DNA of 64,000 nucleotides from Neodothiora populina (lineage: Eukaryota): the NCBI RefSeq assembly GCF_041146345.1, contig NW_027191410.1, positions 434,001-498,000 of the forward strand, written 5' to 3'. How positions within the stretch are numbered: position 1 is the first letter of the stretch; every line of letters starts with the position of its first letter. Shown one piece after another: positions 1,394 through 51,085 of this stretch. Below the pieces are notes generated by a model. It was not told the DNA's origin and did not search any database. It saw nothing but the letters and a program-made list of their open reading frames with translations. The position numbers and the translations under genes are program-made.

Positions 1394-2602
1394 AATGGAA
1401 AGGCGATACGCTCAAGTATATCACTTTCACACTTCTTGATGAGAATATGGTACAAAAGTCGGAAAAAGTAACTGAACCTGTCCACTCTCAAACTGCTGTG
1501 TTTATAGTAGGTACAGCTTCCTCAAACAAAAACAAGATTTATTGTATCCGGAACTGTTGACTTGATCGTGATACACGAATTAATACGTCGAAGGTGATGG
1601 CGATGTGATGTGACGTATCTGGGGTTACAAACGTCAGATCGACGCACAAGAAAGCTTCTTTCAAGGATGGCTCCACGGTCCCACCACGGCAGGCCTGCAA
1701 TAGTGATCAAGCTTTCGATGGAGAGCTTCATCTGTTTAGCTGACGACTTCACGATAAGAGAGATACGGTAAGGTAACATCTCTATTTTCTCACGCCGATT
1801 TAGACTTCAGATATCCACTTCCAAGCGCTTAAACACCATCAAGTAGCCATTTGCTGCGTCCGTAGGATTAGACAGGGTCCCCCTCTTGTGCGCGGCGTGG
1901 CGTACTACTATACCGCGCGTGGGTCCAGCCTTGATCGTATCAAAATCTAATCACATTGTTTCCCGTCCTTTACGCAGCGTAGATATTATTCCGAATCACA
2001 CAGAGCACTGATATTGCACACATGCAGGGTCAACGCACTCTGCTTAAGCGGAAAAGGGTACATCGTCTATAGCGATGAAGCAATTGAAACGACGCTTGGT
2101 GACTATGTAAGCTGATCACTTACTCCGGTGTTCCTTGTTCGTTGAAATGCTTGATGCATAATCTACCGAAGCACTTGCTAATCATTGAGCATAATAACAC
2201 GCCTGTTCGTGTCTGTATGAGGGCAAGACAGGAGCTGCTGTAATCTCTGCTAGTCCAAGTCTTATCATCGTGGTCAACTCAGACAGCAAGCAAGGTATGA
2301 AATTATTGTGCTGGCATGCTTGTTGGTGTAGTTGGTCTGTTGCACATACTCCATACCTTACCTTACCTTGTGAATGGTCCTGACGAAGCCACCCTCGTCA
2401 CATCTTCACCCCGACCACATGGGACGTAGCCGATGGCTGCGGGGTACGAGTGTAGTGCGGGGAATATAGGTACGGCAGGAAGTGCGAAGGATACGAACAG
2501 CGAATCAAATAACAATAATGGTAAGTACTATGGGAAATACTACTACTCTTCATTTTCGAATATACCACATTCTGAGAGTATCATTGAATCAGTATTCAAG
2601 TC

Positions 2603-4513
2603 ATGGAACCTGCAAATCTTCAACAACAGCATGAGCCCGAGGAGCCTCGCTATCTCCAATTCCCGCATCATGATACAATGGAGGATGGCTCTCCCAGGCT
2701 GAACAGATAATCGCACGTCCTTACCCGCGGTCATGACTTCCCAGGTGCACAGGCGATGCTGTACGCGGCCGGGGTACCAGATAAGAAGACTATGAAGACT
2801 GCACCCCAAGTGGGTATATCGAGTGTGTGGTGGGAAGGAAATCCTTGCAAGTTAGAACTGTCATCCAACGAAGTGGTTCAAACGCCTGCTGACCGTCGAT
2901 AGTACCCATTGTATGATAAACTGAGAAGGTCTGATGGCAATTGACTAATCAAAGTTCTAGTGAACGACTTAGGAAAGGTTGTCAAAGACGCAGTACAGAA
3001 GCAAGGCATGCTTGGGTGGCAATACAATACCATTGGTGTTTCCGATGGCATCACCATGGGCGGGGAGGGAATGCGATTCTCTCTGCAGACACGGGAGATC
3101 ATCGCAGATAGCATCGAAACAGTGACCTGTGCTCAGCATCATGATGCAAACATCGCAATTCCGGGCTGCGACAAGAACATGCCCGGATGTGTGATGGCGA
3201 TGGCTCGACACAATCGCCCTTCGGTTGTGATATATGGCGGAACCATTAACCCGGGTTATTCACCATTACTCAAGAAACCGATCAACATCACGACTTGTTA
3301 TGAAGCACATGGAGCGTACAACTTTGACACGCTGAAGAACCCAGATGATTTAAGTCAAACCAAGGATGACATCTTGTCAGATATCGAGAAGAATGCATGC
3401 CCAGGCGCTGGGGCGTGTGGTGGTATGTTCACTGCCAATACGATGGCAACAGCAATTGAGACGCTCGGATTGAGTCTTCCTGGATCAGCAAGTACACCTG
3501 CAACGTCTCCGGCCAAAATGCGCGAGTGTATGAAGGCAGCGGACGCTATAAAGATCTGCATGGCTAAAAATATTCGGCCTCTGCATTTATTGACCGGCGC
3601 ATCTTTCGAGAATGCTCTAGTCATGATGATGGCTCTTGGTGGCTCTACAAATGGTGTGCTGCATCTTCTGGCCATGGCCGGTACTGCGGGTGTTAAGCTT
3701 ACTCTAGATGATTTCCAAAGGGTGTCTGACAAGGTCCCGTTTATTGCTGATCTTGCTCCATCAGGCAGATACCTGATGGCTGATCTATACGAAGTGGGCG
3801 GGATCCCCGCCGTGTTGAAGCTACTTATAGCATCTGGCATTCTCAATGGCGATACTCCAACTGTCACTGGTAAGACATTGGCCGAGAACGTCGCGTCCTT
3901 CCCATCTCTATCTGCTGGTCAGAAGATCATTCGCAGTCTCGATCAGCCAATAAAGTCAACCGGCCATATCGAAGTCTTGCGTGGCAACCTTGCTCCTGAA
4001 GGTGCTGTGGCGAAAATCACAGGCAAGGAAGGTCTGAACTTTACTGGCAAAGCCCAAGTTTTCAACAAGGAGCACGAGCTCGATGCAGCCTTAAACAAAG
4101 GACAAATATCTCGCGCAGAGAACCTAGTTCTTATCGTGAGGTACGAAGGGCCAGTTGGAGGTCCTGGCATGCCGGAACAATTAAAGTCAAGCGCTGCCTT
4201 GATGGGTGCCAAATTGACCAATGTTGCCTTAGTCACAGATGGACGATACAGTGGTGCTAGCCACGGATTTATCGTTGGACATGTGACACCAGAAGCTGCT
4301 GTTGGGGGGCCGATCGCACTTGTAAAGGATGGTGACATGGTGACGATTGATGCCCAAACGAAAACGATCACTATGGACGTGCCTGAGGATGAGATTAACA
4401 GGCGGAGAACGGCATGGAAAAGGCCAGCAATGACGGTGACCCGGGGCGTCCTGGCGAAGTACGCTAAATTGGTAGGCGATGCAAGCCATGGTGCAATGAC
4501 TGATTTGTTCTGA
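2603..4513 (+). CDS. Dihydroxy-acid dehydratase (IlvD/Edd family) paralog without an obvious mitochondrial presequence; in-frame TAA at codon 36, so possibly a pseudogene allele
   Basis: Exons 2603-2850, 2903-2910 (8-nt micro-exon) and 2961-4513 give ...GHDFPGAQAMLYAAG...WWEGNPC-NTHL-NDLG..., PGCDKNMPG, GACGGMFTANTM, GGSTN and TDGRYSGASHG. TAA at 2708-2710 interrupts exon 1. The next in-frame ATG is at 2756. Confidence 0.9.
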
Positions 4514-12268: not shown

Positions 12269-12831
12269 GCTTGTTGCCTTACGACGAGGCGTGACATCGA
12301 AGAGGAGGACGGAAATGAAGAAGACTGTAGGAATTGATGAAGAGACGAGATAAGATCGACGAGACGGATGATATTTTTTGTTTATTTTCTCCTTTGTCAT
12401 CATCTCACGGAGGGACGGAGTCATGGGTAATGCCGAGCGGGCGATAATCCATTTTCGTCCTTCCAACCATACGCGTTTGTGGTTCTTTCCTTCCCTGTCT
12501 GTTCATATCTACTGTCTCACGGTGGGCGCTTTGGAGATGGGTTTCATTTTCCTTTTATTTTCATTCTCATGTGATGATGCCTGGAGATAGACGTCGACGA
12601 AATTGTAACTTTTGATGTTGACGAAATGGAAGACTATATGCGAAGAATCACCAATAGACTCTATGAGAGAAGAATGATTTGATTGATATACTCGATGTGA
12701 CCTTTATGGTGAAGCTAACCTTTCTCACGTGTTCCCTGTCCGTCGCTCTCGTCGAAGAGACAACATTCGTTCGTTTCTTAAGTTCGTCTAATGTATGATT
12801 GTCTTCAGTTCCAATTCCTTTTTCATAAGTC

Positions 12832-15800
12832 CTATGTCCTACCCGGTGTCTCATCCCCATGCGCCACCTCCGACTGACCGAAAACCATCTCTCCCACCTC
12901 GGCAGGACTACCTTCGCCAATGACTTTCCCATTACCAAGAGCGAGACAGTATTCGGCGTCTCGGACAGCAGAAGGTCTATGAGCGATAGTGATGACCGTG
13001 CTGCCCTTCATTTCCTCCCTCAGCACTCTCTGGATCTTCCATGCTGTGTCCATGTCTATACTGGCGGTCGCCTCGTCCATGATCACAATGGCGCTTCGGC
13101 GCAGGATCGCGCGCGCAAGTCCGACGAGTTGGCGCTGGCCTTGACTTAGGTTCTTGCCGCCCGTGTCGATCTGCGTGTCAAGTGTCCATTGGTATGACGG
13201 ACATACTCTGGCGATGACGGCTTCGCAGGCTTCGTCGGAGTGTTCTTCTGTCGGGTCGAGGTTGTGGCGGAGAGAGCCGGGGAACAGAACTGGGTCTTGA
13301 GCGAGGAAGGTGATGCGCGTGCGAAGAGCTTGTTTGTCGGCTTTGGAAATGTCTATGCCGCCGATGAGGATCCGGCCTGACTCGGGCGTGATGGTGGCCA
13401 GGAGAGCTAATGCGAGTGTACTCTTGCCTGATCCGGTTCGTCCGATCACAGCGGTGTTGGTACCACCTTTGAGCTGGAATGATATTCCTGATAATGCAGG
13501 TTCGAGGTGGGGTGCGTAGCGTATGGTGACATCTTCGAAGATGATGTCACTTTCGTAAGATGGCCACCATGCTGGCGGATCTATGCTACCTTTCGGTTCC
13601 TGCTCGAGATGAAGCAACTCGACTACTCTCTCCACAGACACGAAATCCAGCTGCAATTGGCCATACTGCTTACAGATTTCGTGTGTCGCACGCACAAAAC
13701 TACTTGCCGATACCAACACAAAGGCGGTCAGCCCAGAGGTCAGCCCAGAGTAGATCGCTAAGATTGTCAAGATGAAGGTAGAACAGCCCGAGAGAATGTC
13801 AAAGCGGTACATCAACCAGCTCTGCAGACTCCAGTAGAAATGATCCATCTTCTGGAAGTTGTCAGTCACGGCAATCACGCGATCTTGGAATTGAGATTGG
13901 GCGCAAAATGCTGTGAGCAGGGTTAGCGATAGTGCCTCCGATTTATTGGATACCAACATACCTCTGACGGTTGTAAGACCATCCAAAAGCGCACCGAAGT
14001 TTGACATGAGAGGGCTCAAAGATACCATCTGCAGTTTTGTCAGCTTATTGTTTTCTGTGAACTTAATTCATGAATAAAGATGCGTACCTCAAGCCTGCGC
14101 AAGCTTTGAGATGTAGGGAGAAAGCGCAAGAAAACAAATACGAATGCAATGGTCAGAGCCATGGAAAAAATGAGAAATATCGGAGTGATGCTTGCAATGA
14201 CAACAACAGCAGACACCCAAGCAATAGATTGCCACACAACATTCAAGAACTTATCCGAGATGTTGCCATCGATTGTGCCGACATCAGAAGTCAATCTGTT
14301 CATAAGACGTCCGACTGGGGTGACATCGTAGTAGCGGAAAGTTGTATAGCTGACACGTTTCATGATGTCTCTGAACATCTGGCGCCCTGCCGAGTATATG
14401 ACTACCAGCATAAAACTTTGGAGGACGAGGAAGCCGGTCGCCTGCGCAATGGCGATGAGAAGATACCCGATGAGCCAGGGCTTGACGTTATCCGATGGGT
14501 TCGGGAAGCGGCTGAAGAATCCAGATACCGGACTCGACTGCATATGTAGTTGAGCGGAAAGGCGTTGGGCTACGAATGCATTCACTCCAGCTTCGTTATA
14601 TGCCTCGCCCCACTCCTTGAGAAACCAGGATTCCAGCACACGGACTAGACGACAGAACGCAGCGCCTAAAATCACAAATGCCCACCACTTTAGCTTGCCG
14701 GCTTTGACATATTGCCAATATACTTTGAATTGCACACCCCCATGCTTGCGGTGTTCATCTTCCGTGAACTTGTCAGGAACTGCGGCTGCTTCTTGGGCTT
14801 CGTCCGAGGATCCATCTACCAGGGTACCACCGTCGGAGCCAGCTTGAGGGATGTTCGACCCGTCAGTCATTTCATCGTCATCTACGACGCGTGCCGTGCC
14901 ATTCACGATTTCGATGGCGTGCTCAGCTATACCCCGGCATAGATCAGTCCTGTGGGTTACGAGAATGACAACGCGGTCTTTCGTTAGATCTCCGGCGAGA
15001 CATTTGGATACAATCGCTTCTGCAGTCTGCTGATCTAGCGCACTTAATGGATCATCGAGCATCAAGATATTTGCTCTGCTGTAGACTGCTCGTGCAAGAG
15101 CTACTCTGGCTTTCTGACCACCTGAAAGTCCGATGCCGTTCTCGCCGATCGGCGAGAGATCACCATGCTGGAAATTCGCGAAATCGGAAACGAGAGCACA
15201 AGCGTCCAGAGTCTGTTTGTAACGAACCTCGTCGTATGGCGAGCCGAACAAAATGTTGTCACGTATGCTCATGCTCTGCAACCAGGGACTTTGTGCGCAG
15301 TATGCAACCGGGGTTTTCGGTTTATGAAGTTGCCCACCGCGGAGGTCAAGTTCCCCCAGAAGAGCTTGTAATAAGGCAGTCTTCCCAGACGCCACTGGAC
15401 CCGATATCACGGTCAAACCAGTCGGAAAGGACAGTGTAACATTGCGCAGGACATTGCGAGATAGTCCTGGCCATGCGAAAGACGCGTCCTTGACTTCTAG
15501 CGCTTGCTCTATTCCTGAGGGTTCCCCTTCAATATCCAGATGTGCCCGATCCGGCTCAGCCATGAAGTCCTCGATACGCCCAACAGCAACATTTGCATTC
15601 AGCAATACAGTGATCAAGCCGGGTATATCTCGCAGATTCCCTTGCAGTAGAATGAACAGCTGTAGGGCGGGAAAGGCTACCGAAACTCTTAATTGATGGC
15701 CTGCAAGTGCGGTATATGCCCAAAACGAGGCAACAGGCAGAATGCCACTACCGAGCATATTGAAGAATATGATAGCGAGGTCCCAGATGTTTGTCAGCAC

Positions 15801-18499: not shown

Positions 18500-18594
18500 G
18501 GCCGCGTGGCCCAATGGCAAGGCGCTTGACTACGATTCAATCTATTCGATTGAGCGGTATCAAGAGATTCCAGGTTCGACCCCTGGCGCGGTCA
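18500..18594 (+). tRNA. tRNA-Arg(ACG) with a 23-nt intron (18536-18558)
   Basis: Acceptor stem GGCCGCG/CGCGGTC, D-arm TGGCCCAATGG, anticodon arm CTTGA-CT-ACG-A[intron]A-TCAAG, T-arm CCAGG-TTCGACC-CCTGG, and an oligo-T terminator just downstream. Confidence 0.95.
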
Positions 18595-46390: not shown

Positions 46391-46497
46391 CGACGCCTGT
46401 GTGATTCGAACACACGCTCCCGAAGGAAATGCCTGTCGGCTAACAGCTCAAGAAGCTGAATAGCAGGGCATCGCGTTAACCACTCCGCCAAAGCGCC
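46391..46497 (-). tRNA. tRNA-Ser(GCT) with a 26-nt intron (46435-46460)
   Basis: Minus strand reads GGCGCTT-TGGCGGAGTGGTTAACGCG-ATGCC-CT-GCT-A[intron]A-GGCAT, long variable arm TTCC-TTCG-GGAG, T-arm GTGTG-TTCGAAT-CACAC, then AGGCGTC-G. Confidence 0.95.
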
Positions 46498-46863: not shown

Positions 46864-46916
46864 CTACATACGCAGTCAGCTCAAGCAGTCTAACAAGTGG
46901 AACTTATGGCACTTAT
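46864..46916 (-). other. Terminal 3'-processing intron of the candidate telomerase RNA (non-canonical AUAAGU 5' splice site)
   Basis: ATAAGT 46916-46911 (a second copy at 46907-46902), branch site GCTGAC 46880-46875 and TAG 46866-46864. It starts 3 nt after the Sm-type site. Confidence 0.85.
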
Positions 46917-49140
46917 CGGAAAAAATTGGGCTGCCTTCGTCTTCCCCAAGGAAGAGCAAAGGCAGCAAGAAACAGCGCCCAAATGCACCTATACAGCCCC
47001 TCATCCACTCTTCAACCTAGGCCTGCCAAACTAACCCTCGTCGACTATACTTGTTCACCTGATAGGACACAGAGAAAATCATGAGCCAAGGATCTCATAA
47101 GAGCCGTATCCTCCGCTGCCGCTCGGCGAATACTCAAGAGACTGAAATATAACAACAATAGATCACACATCTGGCGGATACAAGGAACAGACAAGCCAAA
47201 GCTTTGATCCTCACTCGAGAGAGGTCCTGTCCTTGTAGCCGTGACCCAGCTGTCACGATCATTGCGTTTGTGTGATTGTCCCGAGTCCGTGGGTGAGCGC
47301 AGCGGGTTCGAAACGGCTAGAAATCGAGGTTGATTGTTTCCCTTGCAATGTGCTACATCCACAGCGAACAAGTATTGCGGCAAGGATCAACCGACTGAGC
47401 CTTGACGTCGAGTTTCCGAACGACCATGTCCACCCTTGTGACTAACACTATGCAAACTAAACGACGTGGAATCCGAGTCAACCACACCAAAACGTATGCC
47501 TAGTCGTTACACTAGACCCTTGGAAAAACTCTCACGATTCAGATCAGCATCCTCTCTCAGTGTGTGATGCATTGCTCTCGGAGACACGTCTTTGTTTCCT
47601 CGTTCGCTCTGACAGGCGGGGCCAGGCAAGACGGGCATTTGTGGAAGCGAACAAAGTACATCATCAAAAATCGCTTCGGTCTTCGTCACGAAGACCACGC
47701 AGCCTCTTCAGCAAGCTGAGGAGCGCGCAGGAGGTTCGGCGTCCATCAATCGACTTCCTTGTCAAGCAAGGAAGGAGACGGTTAACGTGACTGATCGAGA
47801 CAGTGGCGATTGAGCCAGCAGAACCTGGAGCTGGTGCTTACGGTTCTGGCTCGGCAGCCGATTTCGTAGCAACCAAGAGCGGAGAGAAGGTAGATGGCTG
47901 TCTCGAGCGTGAAGCTGAGAATAGTGGGTAGAAGAACGGTACGGGTGATCTTTGTCGAGATAGTCGCAAGTTGATGTGCAGACCAATGCAAGAACCATTT
48001 GCGTGACGATATCCTTACCTTTGAGGACTCAGACAAACCATGCAAGCCACGACATCTGCACGTGAGCGTACATCAGACAGTACAGGTTGAGAGGCAAAGA
48101 TATACAGAAATCAGGAGACATCGATATGCCATGGGGTGACAGCACGACCTGCAGATACCTCTGTGTGTAGCTCGGTGGCCTTGCTACGCGCAGGTGCACG
48201 ATTCTGGCAAGTGCCTGTAGAAGAGCCAGGTGGAGGTAGCAACAGTCGTCCTTCGTCTGTACGGAAGCAATATCGAGCTCATCTCTGAATACCTGAGCTT
48301 CCCACTGCCAGCCATCCGTACATCTCACAACAGGCACCTTGAGGTGCTAATGACGCTTTGCATGATTCGCAGGGTCCGGATCAGGAGTACCGACTTTGCT
48401 GGACACTTGTATGTGTCGACACCTCGCAAGTCTGTCCACGACACGAGCAAGACCCCAAAGACATCCTCATACAAGGTGCCCGACGGTTCTTGCCTACCCA
48501 GCCCGAATGTAATTGCCACAACAGACCGTAAGAGCTGTCCGTGTATGATCAGAGCATGTTGTCCAGCCAGCCGATTGACGCGTGGGTTCTCAGAACCTCT
48601 TATCAAAACGACGCATATAAAGGCTGCGATTAAGGCTAATGCAGCACCGGACGTCAACGACACTTTGACTCCCGTTGCCGTGATCTTCATATCGATGCCA
48701 CCCCGAAGAGAGTATGCAAGTCAAGAAAGAAAGCGCGAGGAGGTAATCACGAAATTGGCAGCTTCCTGGCCAGAGGATCACGAGACTTAAAGAACCGAGA
48801 ATAGAGCATTAGGGTTAAGTTCCGGGATACATGCCCACCTGCGTTACCTTGCACCAGAACACGCGCCAGCAGCCCAGTGTGAGCCATGCTACGAGGCTCG
48901 AGCGCAGCGCGTGCACCGATGTAAGGACTGTACAGATGGCTCAGAGAGATCCCAACCTCGGGAGAAGTCGAAAGATGCAGCCCGTGACTGTAGGGAGAGT
49001 GCCATGCGCATGTATTAGAGAGACGACTGATTTCTGAATCGAGAAAGCATCAAAGAGCCCAGCTTCGCGATATCAGCGGCATCACGGTGGTGGGTTGAGT
49101 TGGTGATCGATTGAATGAGGAGTGTGTGTAACAAAGGCAG
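46917..49140 (-). ncRNA. Telomerase RNA (TR/TER), about 2.2 kb; 5' end approximate
   Basis: Template TAACCCTAA 48817-48809. Candidate pseudoknot 47677-47588. P5/P6/P6.1 three-way junction 47237-47179. Nested 5'/3' long-range helices. Terminal hairpin 46966-46930, Sm-type site AATTTTTT 46927-46920, then ATAAGT (46916-46911)..GCTGAC..TAG. No credible ORF in the interval. Confidence 0.87.
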
Positions 49141-51085
49141 ATGTGTATGCTACGGTAAGAAGCTCGACAGAGGGCAAACATATAAATAAGGTCAGAGTCC
49201 GGGCGCGTTACATCGATAAGGCGATAAGACGTTCTTGGCGGAACTGTCGCGTCGCGCTGTCACGTTGCTCACGTATTGCCAAAGAGGCGACTTTCATCAC
49301 CATCAGTTGTGCATGATGCACGATATGATTACAATCTTGATCTACAGATACCAAGTAGCATGATTGTGGTACGGTCGGATATAGTCCTCATGCCTTGAGT
49401 GCTACATTCTGCTCTACATTCTGCTGACATTAGTAAGGATTTTGAGCCCCTGCAAATCAGATTTCATCCGTGCTAATGGAAGGCAACTCGTAAGATTGGA
49501 CAGTCGTACAACTGCAAAGACCGAACAACCGTGGGGAATTTGAACGTGGGGTATATTTTTTGTGGCTCCAACTACAGGTAGCCCGATATAAGCTTGACTT
49601 CTCCGCATGTTTTTCCGACCAATACGCCTTGAAACGCCTGGCCATGCCATCTCTCACACTCAGATATGGTCCCAGCCAAAGTAGCCTGATTCTGAGAACG
49701 CTCCTGCTAGAACGCGCAAGGAGTGCGCTCGACTAAAGCAGCTAACGGGAGCTAATGGGATCTCATTGCAGGCGATGCTAATGTGTCGCGTAGGATGCCC
49801 ATGTATGATCTGGATCGTGTGTCGTTATTGTAGGTTCCCTCTGGTATGCAGCTTCATCCTCGCATTTCCGTGTCTGCGCCCTTGGTAGCGGCGTCCTTTG
49901 CAGCGATCCATAAAACGTTGTTGCACCTGTGACAGAGTTCAAGATTAGCGAGTCGTCCACGACTTGACTCTGAGTTGGTCCGAACGACAGATCGCCACGG
50001 TGTGAACTACCGCCACGTGTACAATCTGGTAGGGAAGAATGGACATGGTTACCTGATGAGGACCTGTCCCAGGCTACCAGTGCTCTTGCCATCCATATAT
50101 TCTTCGGCGTTGCTGAGTTGTATGTTCATGTATGAATCGACGGAGACTAATAGACCAGTGTATTCGGAGGTTCCCCACTTCAGACGAATTCTGACTTCCT
50201 CGTTCACACTGCAATGGGGCGTCAGTGTCTATAGGCGCAATGCTAGTCATCAACCAAGGACGTACAGAGATTGCAGCATAGGCCGCGGGTTCAGAGGTAC
50301 AAACTAATCGCTGTCAGTAAAAACTCTCCTGAGGATATAATGCGCAACACCTACGCTCATGTTTCCGACGGCTTGTGATGAATTTCAAGTCGAAGTAAAT
50401 TGGTCCTGGACGTTGTCGCGCGCTGGATGAATCTCACAAGTGACGGGGGAGCTGTAACAACGGAGGTTGGCTTCACGGCTACTTCCGTCGCCAAGCTGCG
50501 TGCCAGCAACGTGTACATGGAATCAATCGCTTTACTTCTTGCTCACTTTGGCAACACCTTATTGACATTCGATCCTGCAATATCCTGAAACAGACTATCG
50601 ATGCTATCGTCTGACCACCTGACCATATCTACTTGATCGATGAGTATCACTGTGACGCGAGTTCGTTTACATTGACCCAATTGAAAGGACTTTCGCTTGT
50701 GCTATCCACTATCTGAATCTGTAGCAATGATGGTATACTAGCTACGCACCGAAATGGATGTCGCCTTGAGGAGAGCGATGCTGAATCGGGTACAATGAGC
50801 ACAGTATCATATCTCTTGCATTTTGTGAGGGATCGGATTGATAAAGCTTATGAGAGCAGCGATCCCGGCGACCGCTTCCTTCAATGAACCCCGCAATCCT
50901 GATAAGGTGCCTTAGTTGGGGGGATGTGGGAAGCTACAGCGCCTGTTTGTGAGTCAATGATAGCAGTGTCACGGAGTCATACGAACCTTCAAGTAACACC
51001 CAAGCAAGCTGGTCAGCGTCTCGTTGGAAGGCGCACTGTGACTGCTTGTCTCCATTCTCTCAATCACAAAAGAAACTCTATCAGC

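Follow-up and report, generated by a model that had tools for sequence, protein, structure and literature searches.

Introduction

According to PMC4993307, all known filamentous fungal telomerase RNAs are processed via spliceosomal cleavage. In Aspergillus, the Sm site, the AUAAGU 5' splice site and the GCUAACU branch sequence were first noted in PMC3603654 (Kuprys 2013), and in PMC4299874 (Kannan 2015) the AUA(A/C)GU of Aspergillus TER1 was described together with branch and 3' splice sites downstream of an Sm-like site. The A at the first position of the intron (A1) blocks the second splicing step and is thought to prevent the contact between the first and the last nucleotide of the intron that serves exon ligation (PMC4299874). 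When the A. niger intron was placed in TER1 of Schizosaccharomyces pombe, a cleaved, non-polyadenylated RNA ending inside the Sm site was obtained, and replacement of the A at intron position 1 with G lowered telomerase activity and shortened the telomeres (PMC4299874). Here we describe a 64,000-nt stretch of Neodothiora populina DNA (contig NW_027191410.1, positions 434,001 to 498,000; the whole stretch is called the window below), in which positions 46966-46864 of the minus strand very probably hold the 3'-end processing module of a filamentous-ascomycete telomerase RNA gene, working by first-step splicing that is limited by A1.

Other described telomerase RNAs share parts of this design. 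The telomerase RNA of Neurospora crassa is listed among the users of spliceosomal cleavage in PMC9564094 and PMC4993307, both citing Qi 2015; according to these papers it is about 2 kb long and has a UAACCCUAA-type template and an intron that has a distinct 5' splice site and undergoes the first step only, and the window is alike in these respects. In S. pombe TER1 (Box 2008, as reported in PMC4299874) the Sm site adjoins the 5' splice site, the 5' exon of the first step being the mature RNA, as we propose for the window. The 5' splice site of S. pombe TER1 is of the GU type, however, and its block relies on a strong branch site together with a long stretch between branch and 3' splice site, whereas the block in the window would be A1 (PMC4299874). 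The same difference separates the window from S. cryophilus and S. octosporus, which rely on hyperstabilised pairing of U6 with the 5' splice site (PMC4299874).

The 3'-end module

An earlier note on this DNA, made from the letters alone, had described a hairpin, CC, a U tract, CCG, two AUAAGU in tandem, GCTGAC and TAG on the minus strand. Direct reading of 46966-46864 found all of these exactly as described and at the same coordinates. In the order of the RNA, the elements are as follows.

46930..46966, minus strand: terminal hairpin GCUGCCUUUGCUCUUCC-UUGG-GGAAGACGAAGGCAGC, with 16 bp, one bulge and a UUGG loop in the predicted fold
46929-46928, minus strand: CC between the hairpin and the U tract, by sequence reading
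46920..46927, minus strand: Sm-like site AAUUUUUU, by sequence reading; unpaired in the predicted fold
46919-46917, minus strand: CCG between the U tract and the first 5' splice site, by sequence reading
46911..46916, minus strand: AUAAGU 5' splice site no. 1, with cleavage predicted after G46917, a position that agrees with the model end in the orthologue L003 and with the Aspergillus rows (both below)
46902..46907, minus strand: AUAAGU no. 2, following a GCC spacer, within the second copy of a 9-nt tandem unit
46892..46899, minus strand: CACUUGUU, complement of G-AUAAGUG, in a predicted 8-bp stem with 46917-46910
46875..46880, minus strand: branch site GCUGAC with branch A 46876, by sequence reading; similar to the A. 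terreus row
between the branch site and UAG, minus strand: UGCGUAUG, by sequence reading
46864..46866, minus strand: 3' splice site UAG, its final base 12 nt past the branch A

The outer 8-nt arms of the hairpin were found to be 100% complementary with a repeat search. The 84-nt stretch that contains the hairpin had a fold of -32.4 kcal/mol (z -2.5), which was equalled by 5 of 200 shuffles. The terminal hairpin, the U-rich Sm-like site and the 5' splice site thus stand in this order at the 3' end of the telomerase RNA, and both copies of AUAAGU have the A at intron position 1 that marks the AUAAGU or AUACGU type of site. Counted from site 1, the intron is 53 nt long with 40 nt from the 5' splice site to the branch A, and a CURAY branch and a YAG follow at intron-like distances; these values lie inside the ranges of a crude intron catalogue of the window, which is given below. 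Counted from site 2, the corresponding lengths are 44 nt and 31 nt. As far as sequence can tell, the module has every defining feature of the Aspergillus/Neurospora spliceosomal-cleavage module. From it we infer the cleavage ends, the first-step-only reaction, the binding of Sm proteins and the use of the module in Neodothiora populina.

In the mechanism that we propose, the precursor would be transcribed beyond the mature end and the spliceosome would assemble on AUAAGU, GCUGAC and UAG, with the first transesterification freeing a 5' exon that ends in G46917. Because A1 would be unable to make the first-to-last-nucleotide contact with UAG, exon ligation would fail and the products would be released in unligated form. 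The terminal hairpin and a ring of Sm (later possibly Lsm) proteins on the U tract would shield the new end, which might first lose a few bases to 3'-to-5' trimming. As the chimera with the A. niger intron ends within the Sm site, the end that is stable may lie upstream of 46917 by a few bases. The earlier note took it as established that AUAAGU allows the first step and blocks ligation in Neurospora and related fungi; for Aspergillus this is documented in PMC4299874, and the Neurospora part comes from papers citing the original work.

The telomerase RNA gene and a metagenomic orthologue

Listed below are the outer limits of the telomerase RNA gene and the features that place the module at its end. 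The scores refer to the Rfam model RF02462.

46917..49150, minus strand: telomerase RNA gene with a mature RNA of about 2.2 kb; the 3' end is the predicted cleavage site and the 5' end is approximate
48809..48817, minus strand: template UAACCCUAA, which specifies TTAGGG repeats; sole match in the window
47583..47674, minus strand: three-way junction (P6/P6.1 region); 24.6 bits, E 8.7e-5, model positions 1285-1381
47193..47262, minus strand: conserved hairpin pair of the 3' domain; 17.3 bits, E 6.5e-4 (171-nt search), model positions 1615-1690
49181..49188, minus strand: possible TATA box TATTTATA, suggested by sequence reading

To find orthologues, a three-way-junction pattern was searched against metagenome contigs, which gave four loci (L001-L004). 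A full-length fungal telomerase RNA was found in L003 at 1850-3584 (+) and again in L001 on the minus strand, with a match to RF02462 of 661 bits (E 1e-199). Since L001 and L003 are identical across the telomerase RNA, they count as one independent orthologue. L002 was rejected as a chance match in bacterial-looking coding DNA that has no template, and L004 as a chance match on a short contig that lacks a template and whose ATAAGT is not preceded by a U tract. The same pattern was also found at four loci in prokaryote genome contigs, all titled bacterial metagenome-assembled genomes.

The window and L003 have three colinear islands in common, corresponding to the template, the three-way junction and the 3'-domain hairpins. 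The template UAACCCUAA is the complement of about 1.5 TTAGGG repeats, and its flanks CGGAACUUAACCCUAA are the same in the window, in L003 and in the RF02462 consensus. It lies inside a 58-nt island (48824-48767) with 74% identity to the template region of L003 (blastn, E 2.8e-4). The island of the three-way junction (47687-47562) aligned with L003 over 130 columns (blastn, E 5e-6), and here the match to RF02462, at the model positions listed above, is a structure-aware one. The 3'-domain island (47227-47188) gave E 7.6e-4 with blastn. All on the minus strand and in colinear order come the template, the three-way junction, the 3'-domain island and the 3' module. This supports the spliceosomal-cleavage module read from the letters by the earlier note, which follows the template, the three-way junction and the 3'-domain pair downstream on their strand and in colinear order. 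RF02462 thus has two colinear local matches in the window; the intron is not part of the model, whose 3' limit is the mature end.

At its 3' end L003 has a hairpin, CC, CUCUUUUU, GGAGG, AUAAGU, GCUAAC and CAG, with an intron of 47 nt. The hairpin ends 13 nt ahead of the 5' splice site in the window and about 14 nt ahead of it in L003. The final position of RF02462 (1858) falls on base 3537 of L003, directly before the AUAAGU. The end at 46917 predicted for the window agrees with this model end, with the reservation made above that the stable end may lie a few bases upstream. L003 has a single AUAAGU, with no second copy. Aligning the two telomerase RNAs globally with MAFFT gave no information beyond the islands, and as the MAFFT alignment of the two 3' ends was off by a few bases, the elements were compared by reading.

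The promoter side is less defined. If TATTTATA is taken as the TATA box of the promoter, an RNA of about 2.2 kb follows.

Comparison with Aspergillus

We compared the module with 10 Aspergillus and Neosartorya rows of the supplementary alignment of PMC3603654 (A. fumigatus, N. fischeri, A. clavatus, A. oryzae, A. flavus, A. sojae, A. niger, A. kawachii, A. carbonarius and A. terreus). In the alignment, all 10 rows have a GC-rich hairpin, CC(C/U), 6-10 U, 1-3 nt, AUAAGU, about 30 nt and GCU(A/G)ACU (PMC3603654). The A. niger row reads ...GGC-CC-AATTTTTT-CTT-ATAAGT and the window ...AGC-CC-AATTTTTT-CCG-ATAAGT, so that the two are nearly the same; in particular, CC-AAUUUUUU is common to the window and A. 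niger TER1. At the branch site the A. terreus row has GCTGACTGC (GCUGACU) where the other rows have GCTAACT, and GCUGACUGC is common to the window and A. terreus. The earlier note had regarded its reading as lost if the arrangement were missing from orthologous loci; it was found in L003 and in 10 of 10 Aspergillus rows.

Weighing the evidence

The motifs by themselves are less telling than their position. ATAAGT occurs 19 times in the window on both strands together, as compared to a shuffle mean of 21.4, which is no enrichment. The copies at 46916 and 46907 are the only ATAAGT pair less than 30 nt apart in the window. The composite of at least five U, AUA(A/C)GU, CURAY and YAG was found at two places in the window and at least once in 11 of 300 dinucleotide shuffles (mean 0.04), and its tandem-AUAAGU form in 0 of 300. 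The other match of the composite, at 12794-12906 (+), has its AUAAGU at 12819 inside an apparent ordinary intron, GTATGA...CTGAC...CAG, with a GUAUGA 5' splice site. This ATAAGT looks incidental, borrowing the ordinary intron's branch site as well as its 3' splice site. Because such a match uses ordinary intron signals, the shuffles understate chance in intron-rich DNA, and the motif statistics alone would therefore not carry the case. Between the three-way junction and 45500 on the minus strand, AUA(A/C)GU occurs only three times, at 47497 (with no upstream U tract), 46916 and 46907. The position at the 3' end of the telomerase RNA is the stronger argument.

Several points weigh against the identification, and some of them have an answer. 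The orthologue comparison was made with a single independent metagenomic orthologue (L003), and the template 9-mer occurred at least once in 16 of 100 shuffles. At its gathering score of 30, RF02462 had no match across the whole window, and Rfam searches of the template region and the 3' end of the window gave no telomerase match; judged by the threshold of Rfam itself, the window RNA therefore does not count as a member of the family. The seed of RF02462 apparently lies near L003-type sequences, so a divergent class may score below the threshold, and the sub-threshold score fits a lineage distant from the seed. In comparison to Aspergillus TER1 the window RNA is highly divergent outside the core islands, with 24.6 and 17.3 bits for RF02462 against 661 in L003. 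The U tract is followed by CC, as compared to a purine in the textbook Sm consensus; C or U likewise follows the U tract in most Aspergillus rows. The predicted stem with CACUUGUU holds site 1 and leaves site 2 in a loop, which would favour site 2. Finally, the catalogue with which the intron was compared consists of 27 crude, unverified intron-like pattern matches in the window (intron length: median 78 nt, 5th percentile 52, minimum 39; minimum distance from 5' splice site to branch 30; branch to 3' splice site 7-27), with CTGAC as the commonest branch-like pentamer (11 of 27).

The second AUAAGU

The two AUAAGU head adjacent 9-nt units, ATAAGTGCC and ATAAGTTCC. As these units are 8/9 identical, they point to a small tandem duplication, and it is most likely in this way, judging from the sequence, that the second AUAAGU arose. 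Outside the hexamers the agreement is 2 of 3 positions, which taken alone is not significant, as its chance was put at about 0.16 by hand arithmetic.

A comparable pair was seen once in Aspergillus. In A. kawachii, by a hand count in the alignment of PMC3603654, a second AUAAGU lies 19 nt after the first, with the branch A only about 17 nt further on; no other of the 10 rows has one. At the same spot A. niger has AUAAGC and A. carbonarius AAAAGC, so the second AUAAGU of A. kawachii is not conserved. The second A. kawachii ATAAGT is unmentioned in the available part of the main text of PMC3603654. A literature search at the level of titles and abstract openings returned nothing on telomerase RNAs whose 5' splice sites are tandem, cryptic or alternative.

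From its sequence context, site 1 looks favoured over site 2. Site 1 has G at the last exon position (-1) and G at +7, while site 2 has C at -1 and U at +7. G at these two positions can pair with the conserved 5' end of U1, and site 2 would form fewer pairs with U1. The intron lengths counted from site 2 are at the extreme low end of the crude catalogue. Site 2 would at best serve as a minor or reserve site of cleavage, and the doubling of the A1 5' splice site is a minor variant that may be neutral.

The earlier note had also suggested that the duplicate could give a second RNA end at 46908, and a distinct stable end there is the weakest part of its reading. Two fission yeasts, S. cryophilus and S. 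octosporus, have their 5' splice sites 14 and 27 nt past the mature ends, and trimming removes the surplus bases (PMC4299874). By this precedent, an RNA cut at 46908 would most likely be shortened to the Sm-protected end, and cleavage at either site would probably lead to one shared protected end and no second stable species.

The alternative with most in its favour is that site 2 (46907-46902) is the main or a co-equal site, with CACUUGUU masking site 1 and the primary end at C46908 being trimmed or kept. The predicted stem between 46917-46910 and 46899-46892 (8 bp, -6.4 kcal/mol, z -2.6, equalled by 4 of 200 shuffles) would put site 2 in its 10-nt loop. Distal 5' splice sites are workable, as the 14 and 27 nt of S. 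cryophilus and S. octosporus illustrate (PMC4299874), and the absence of the tandem arrangement from all 300 shuffles speaks on the same side. However, the stem is weak, with two G-U pairs, and L003 has neither the duplicate nor a counterpart of the CACUUGUU stem. The lengths of 44 and 31 nt are near the catalogue minima of 39 and 30, the base context would give site 2 the fewer U1 pairs, and the second AUAAGU of A. kawachii is unconserved. Taken together, we consider a leading role for site 2 unlikely. The significance of the stem itself, as modelled, is uncertain. As a side observation, CACUUGUU mimics the 5' end of U1.

One further idea joins the two elements. The 9-nt duplication and CACUUGUU might form a switch, in which the formed stem would mask site 1 and show site 2, and the melted stem would let site 1 win; on the modelled fold we hold this to be improbable. 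If true, the switch would give two primary cleavage products or would tune the commitment of the precursor to first-step-only splicing, and RNA structure would then control which 5' splice site is chosen in an intron that forms a 3' end. In a literature search, such structural control was not found described in any telomerase RNA.

Alternative explanations

The preferred reading, cleavage at AUAAGU by first-step splicing, can also be set against explanations in which the module is unused or is used otherwise. The motifs could be idle, with the RNA end made by termination or by exonuclease trimming halted at the hairpin and AUAAGU...GCUGAC...UAG left as chance or as a relic. The composite does occur once more in the window, at 12819 (+), by borrowed intron signals. 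The case against idle motifs is that a like arrangement stands at a like place in L003 and in all 10 Aspergillus rows, that the A. niger version is experimentally functional (PMC4299874), and that downstream of the conserved 3' domain AUAAGU occurs only at 46916 and 46907. We find this explanation quite improbable.

Still less probable, and to us hardly credible, is that the intron is wholly removed, for example as an AU-AC intron via AC 46851-46850, leaving a functional RNA with a second exon. The cleaved form is the functional form according to Kannan 2015 (PMC4299874), and in the window UAG would be met first, 10-12 nt past the branch A. By eye, the first AC lies at a similar place in the two loci, 25-26 nt past the branch A in the window and 27-28 nt in L003 (~3604-3605 (+)); AC dinucleotides are common, however, and the RF02462 model ends before the AUAAGU. 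In favour of complete removal, it is known that a change of the last intron base from A to C suppresses G1-to-A blocks. In both the window and L003 this first AC after the branch A lies within AGAC, which is probably chance.

That the hairpin and T6 form an RNA polymerase III or bacterial-type terminator in place of an Sm site, as a GC-rich hairpin followed by TTTTTT might suggest, can be practically dismissed: the DNA is eukaryotic (intron-bearing transfer RNA (tRNA) genes, Ascomycota neighbours), fungal telomerase RNAs are transcripts of RNA polymerase II, and runs of T5 within the RNA itself, both in the three-way junction and at 47525-47521, would stop RNA polymerase III there.

Neighbouring genes

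Six open reading frames (ORFs) overlap the gene region, and none of the six has a Pfam family; on this ground the module was rejected as the intron of a protein gene. A neighbouring ORF of 419 aa groups with Ascomycota protein clusters. On the evidence of its intron-bearing tRNA genes and Ascomycota-like neighbour, the DNA of the window is fungal.

One tRNA gene with an intron was found at 46391-46497 (-), with 45.2 bits for RF00005; it was missed by ARAGORN in its default mode. It lies on the same strand as the telomerase RNA, 367 nt past the UAG of the intron, and the second exon of the precursor would accordingly extend at most a few hundred bases before the tRNA gene is reached. Another tRNA gene, at 18500-18594 (+), has a 27-nt insertion at the anticodon loop (49.8 bits with Rfam) and fits a fungal nuclear genome.

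Significance

The analysis places and orients a telomerase RNA gene, missed by automatic annotation, in its genome and predicts its 3' end. The mechanism has been in print since 2013-2015 and would not surprise a specialist. Novelty lies solely in the naturally occurring tandem pair of A1 5' splice sites. This pair would provide a ready substrate for the question of how the spliceosome chooses between two equivalent crippled sites in first-step-only splicing, and it also bears on whether the position of the cut matters when the Sm ring sets the final end of the RNA.

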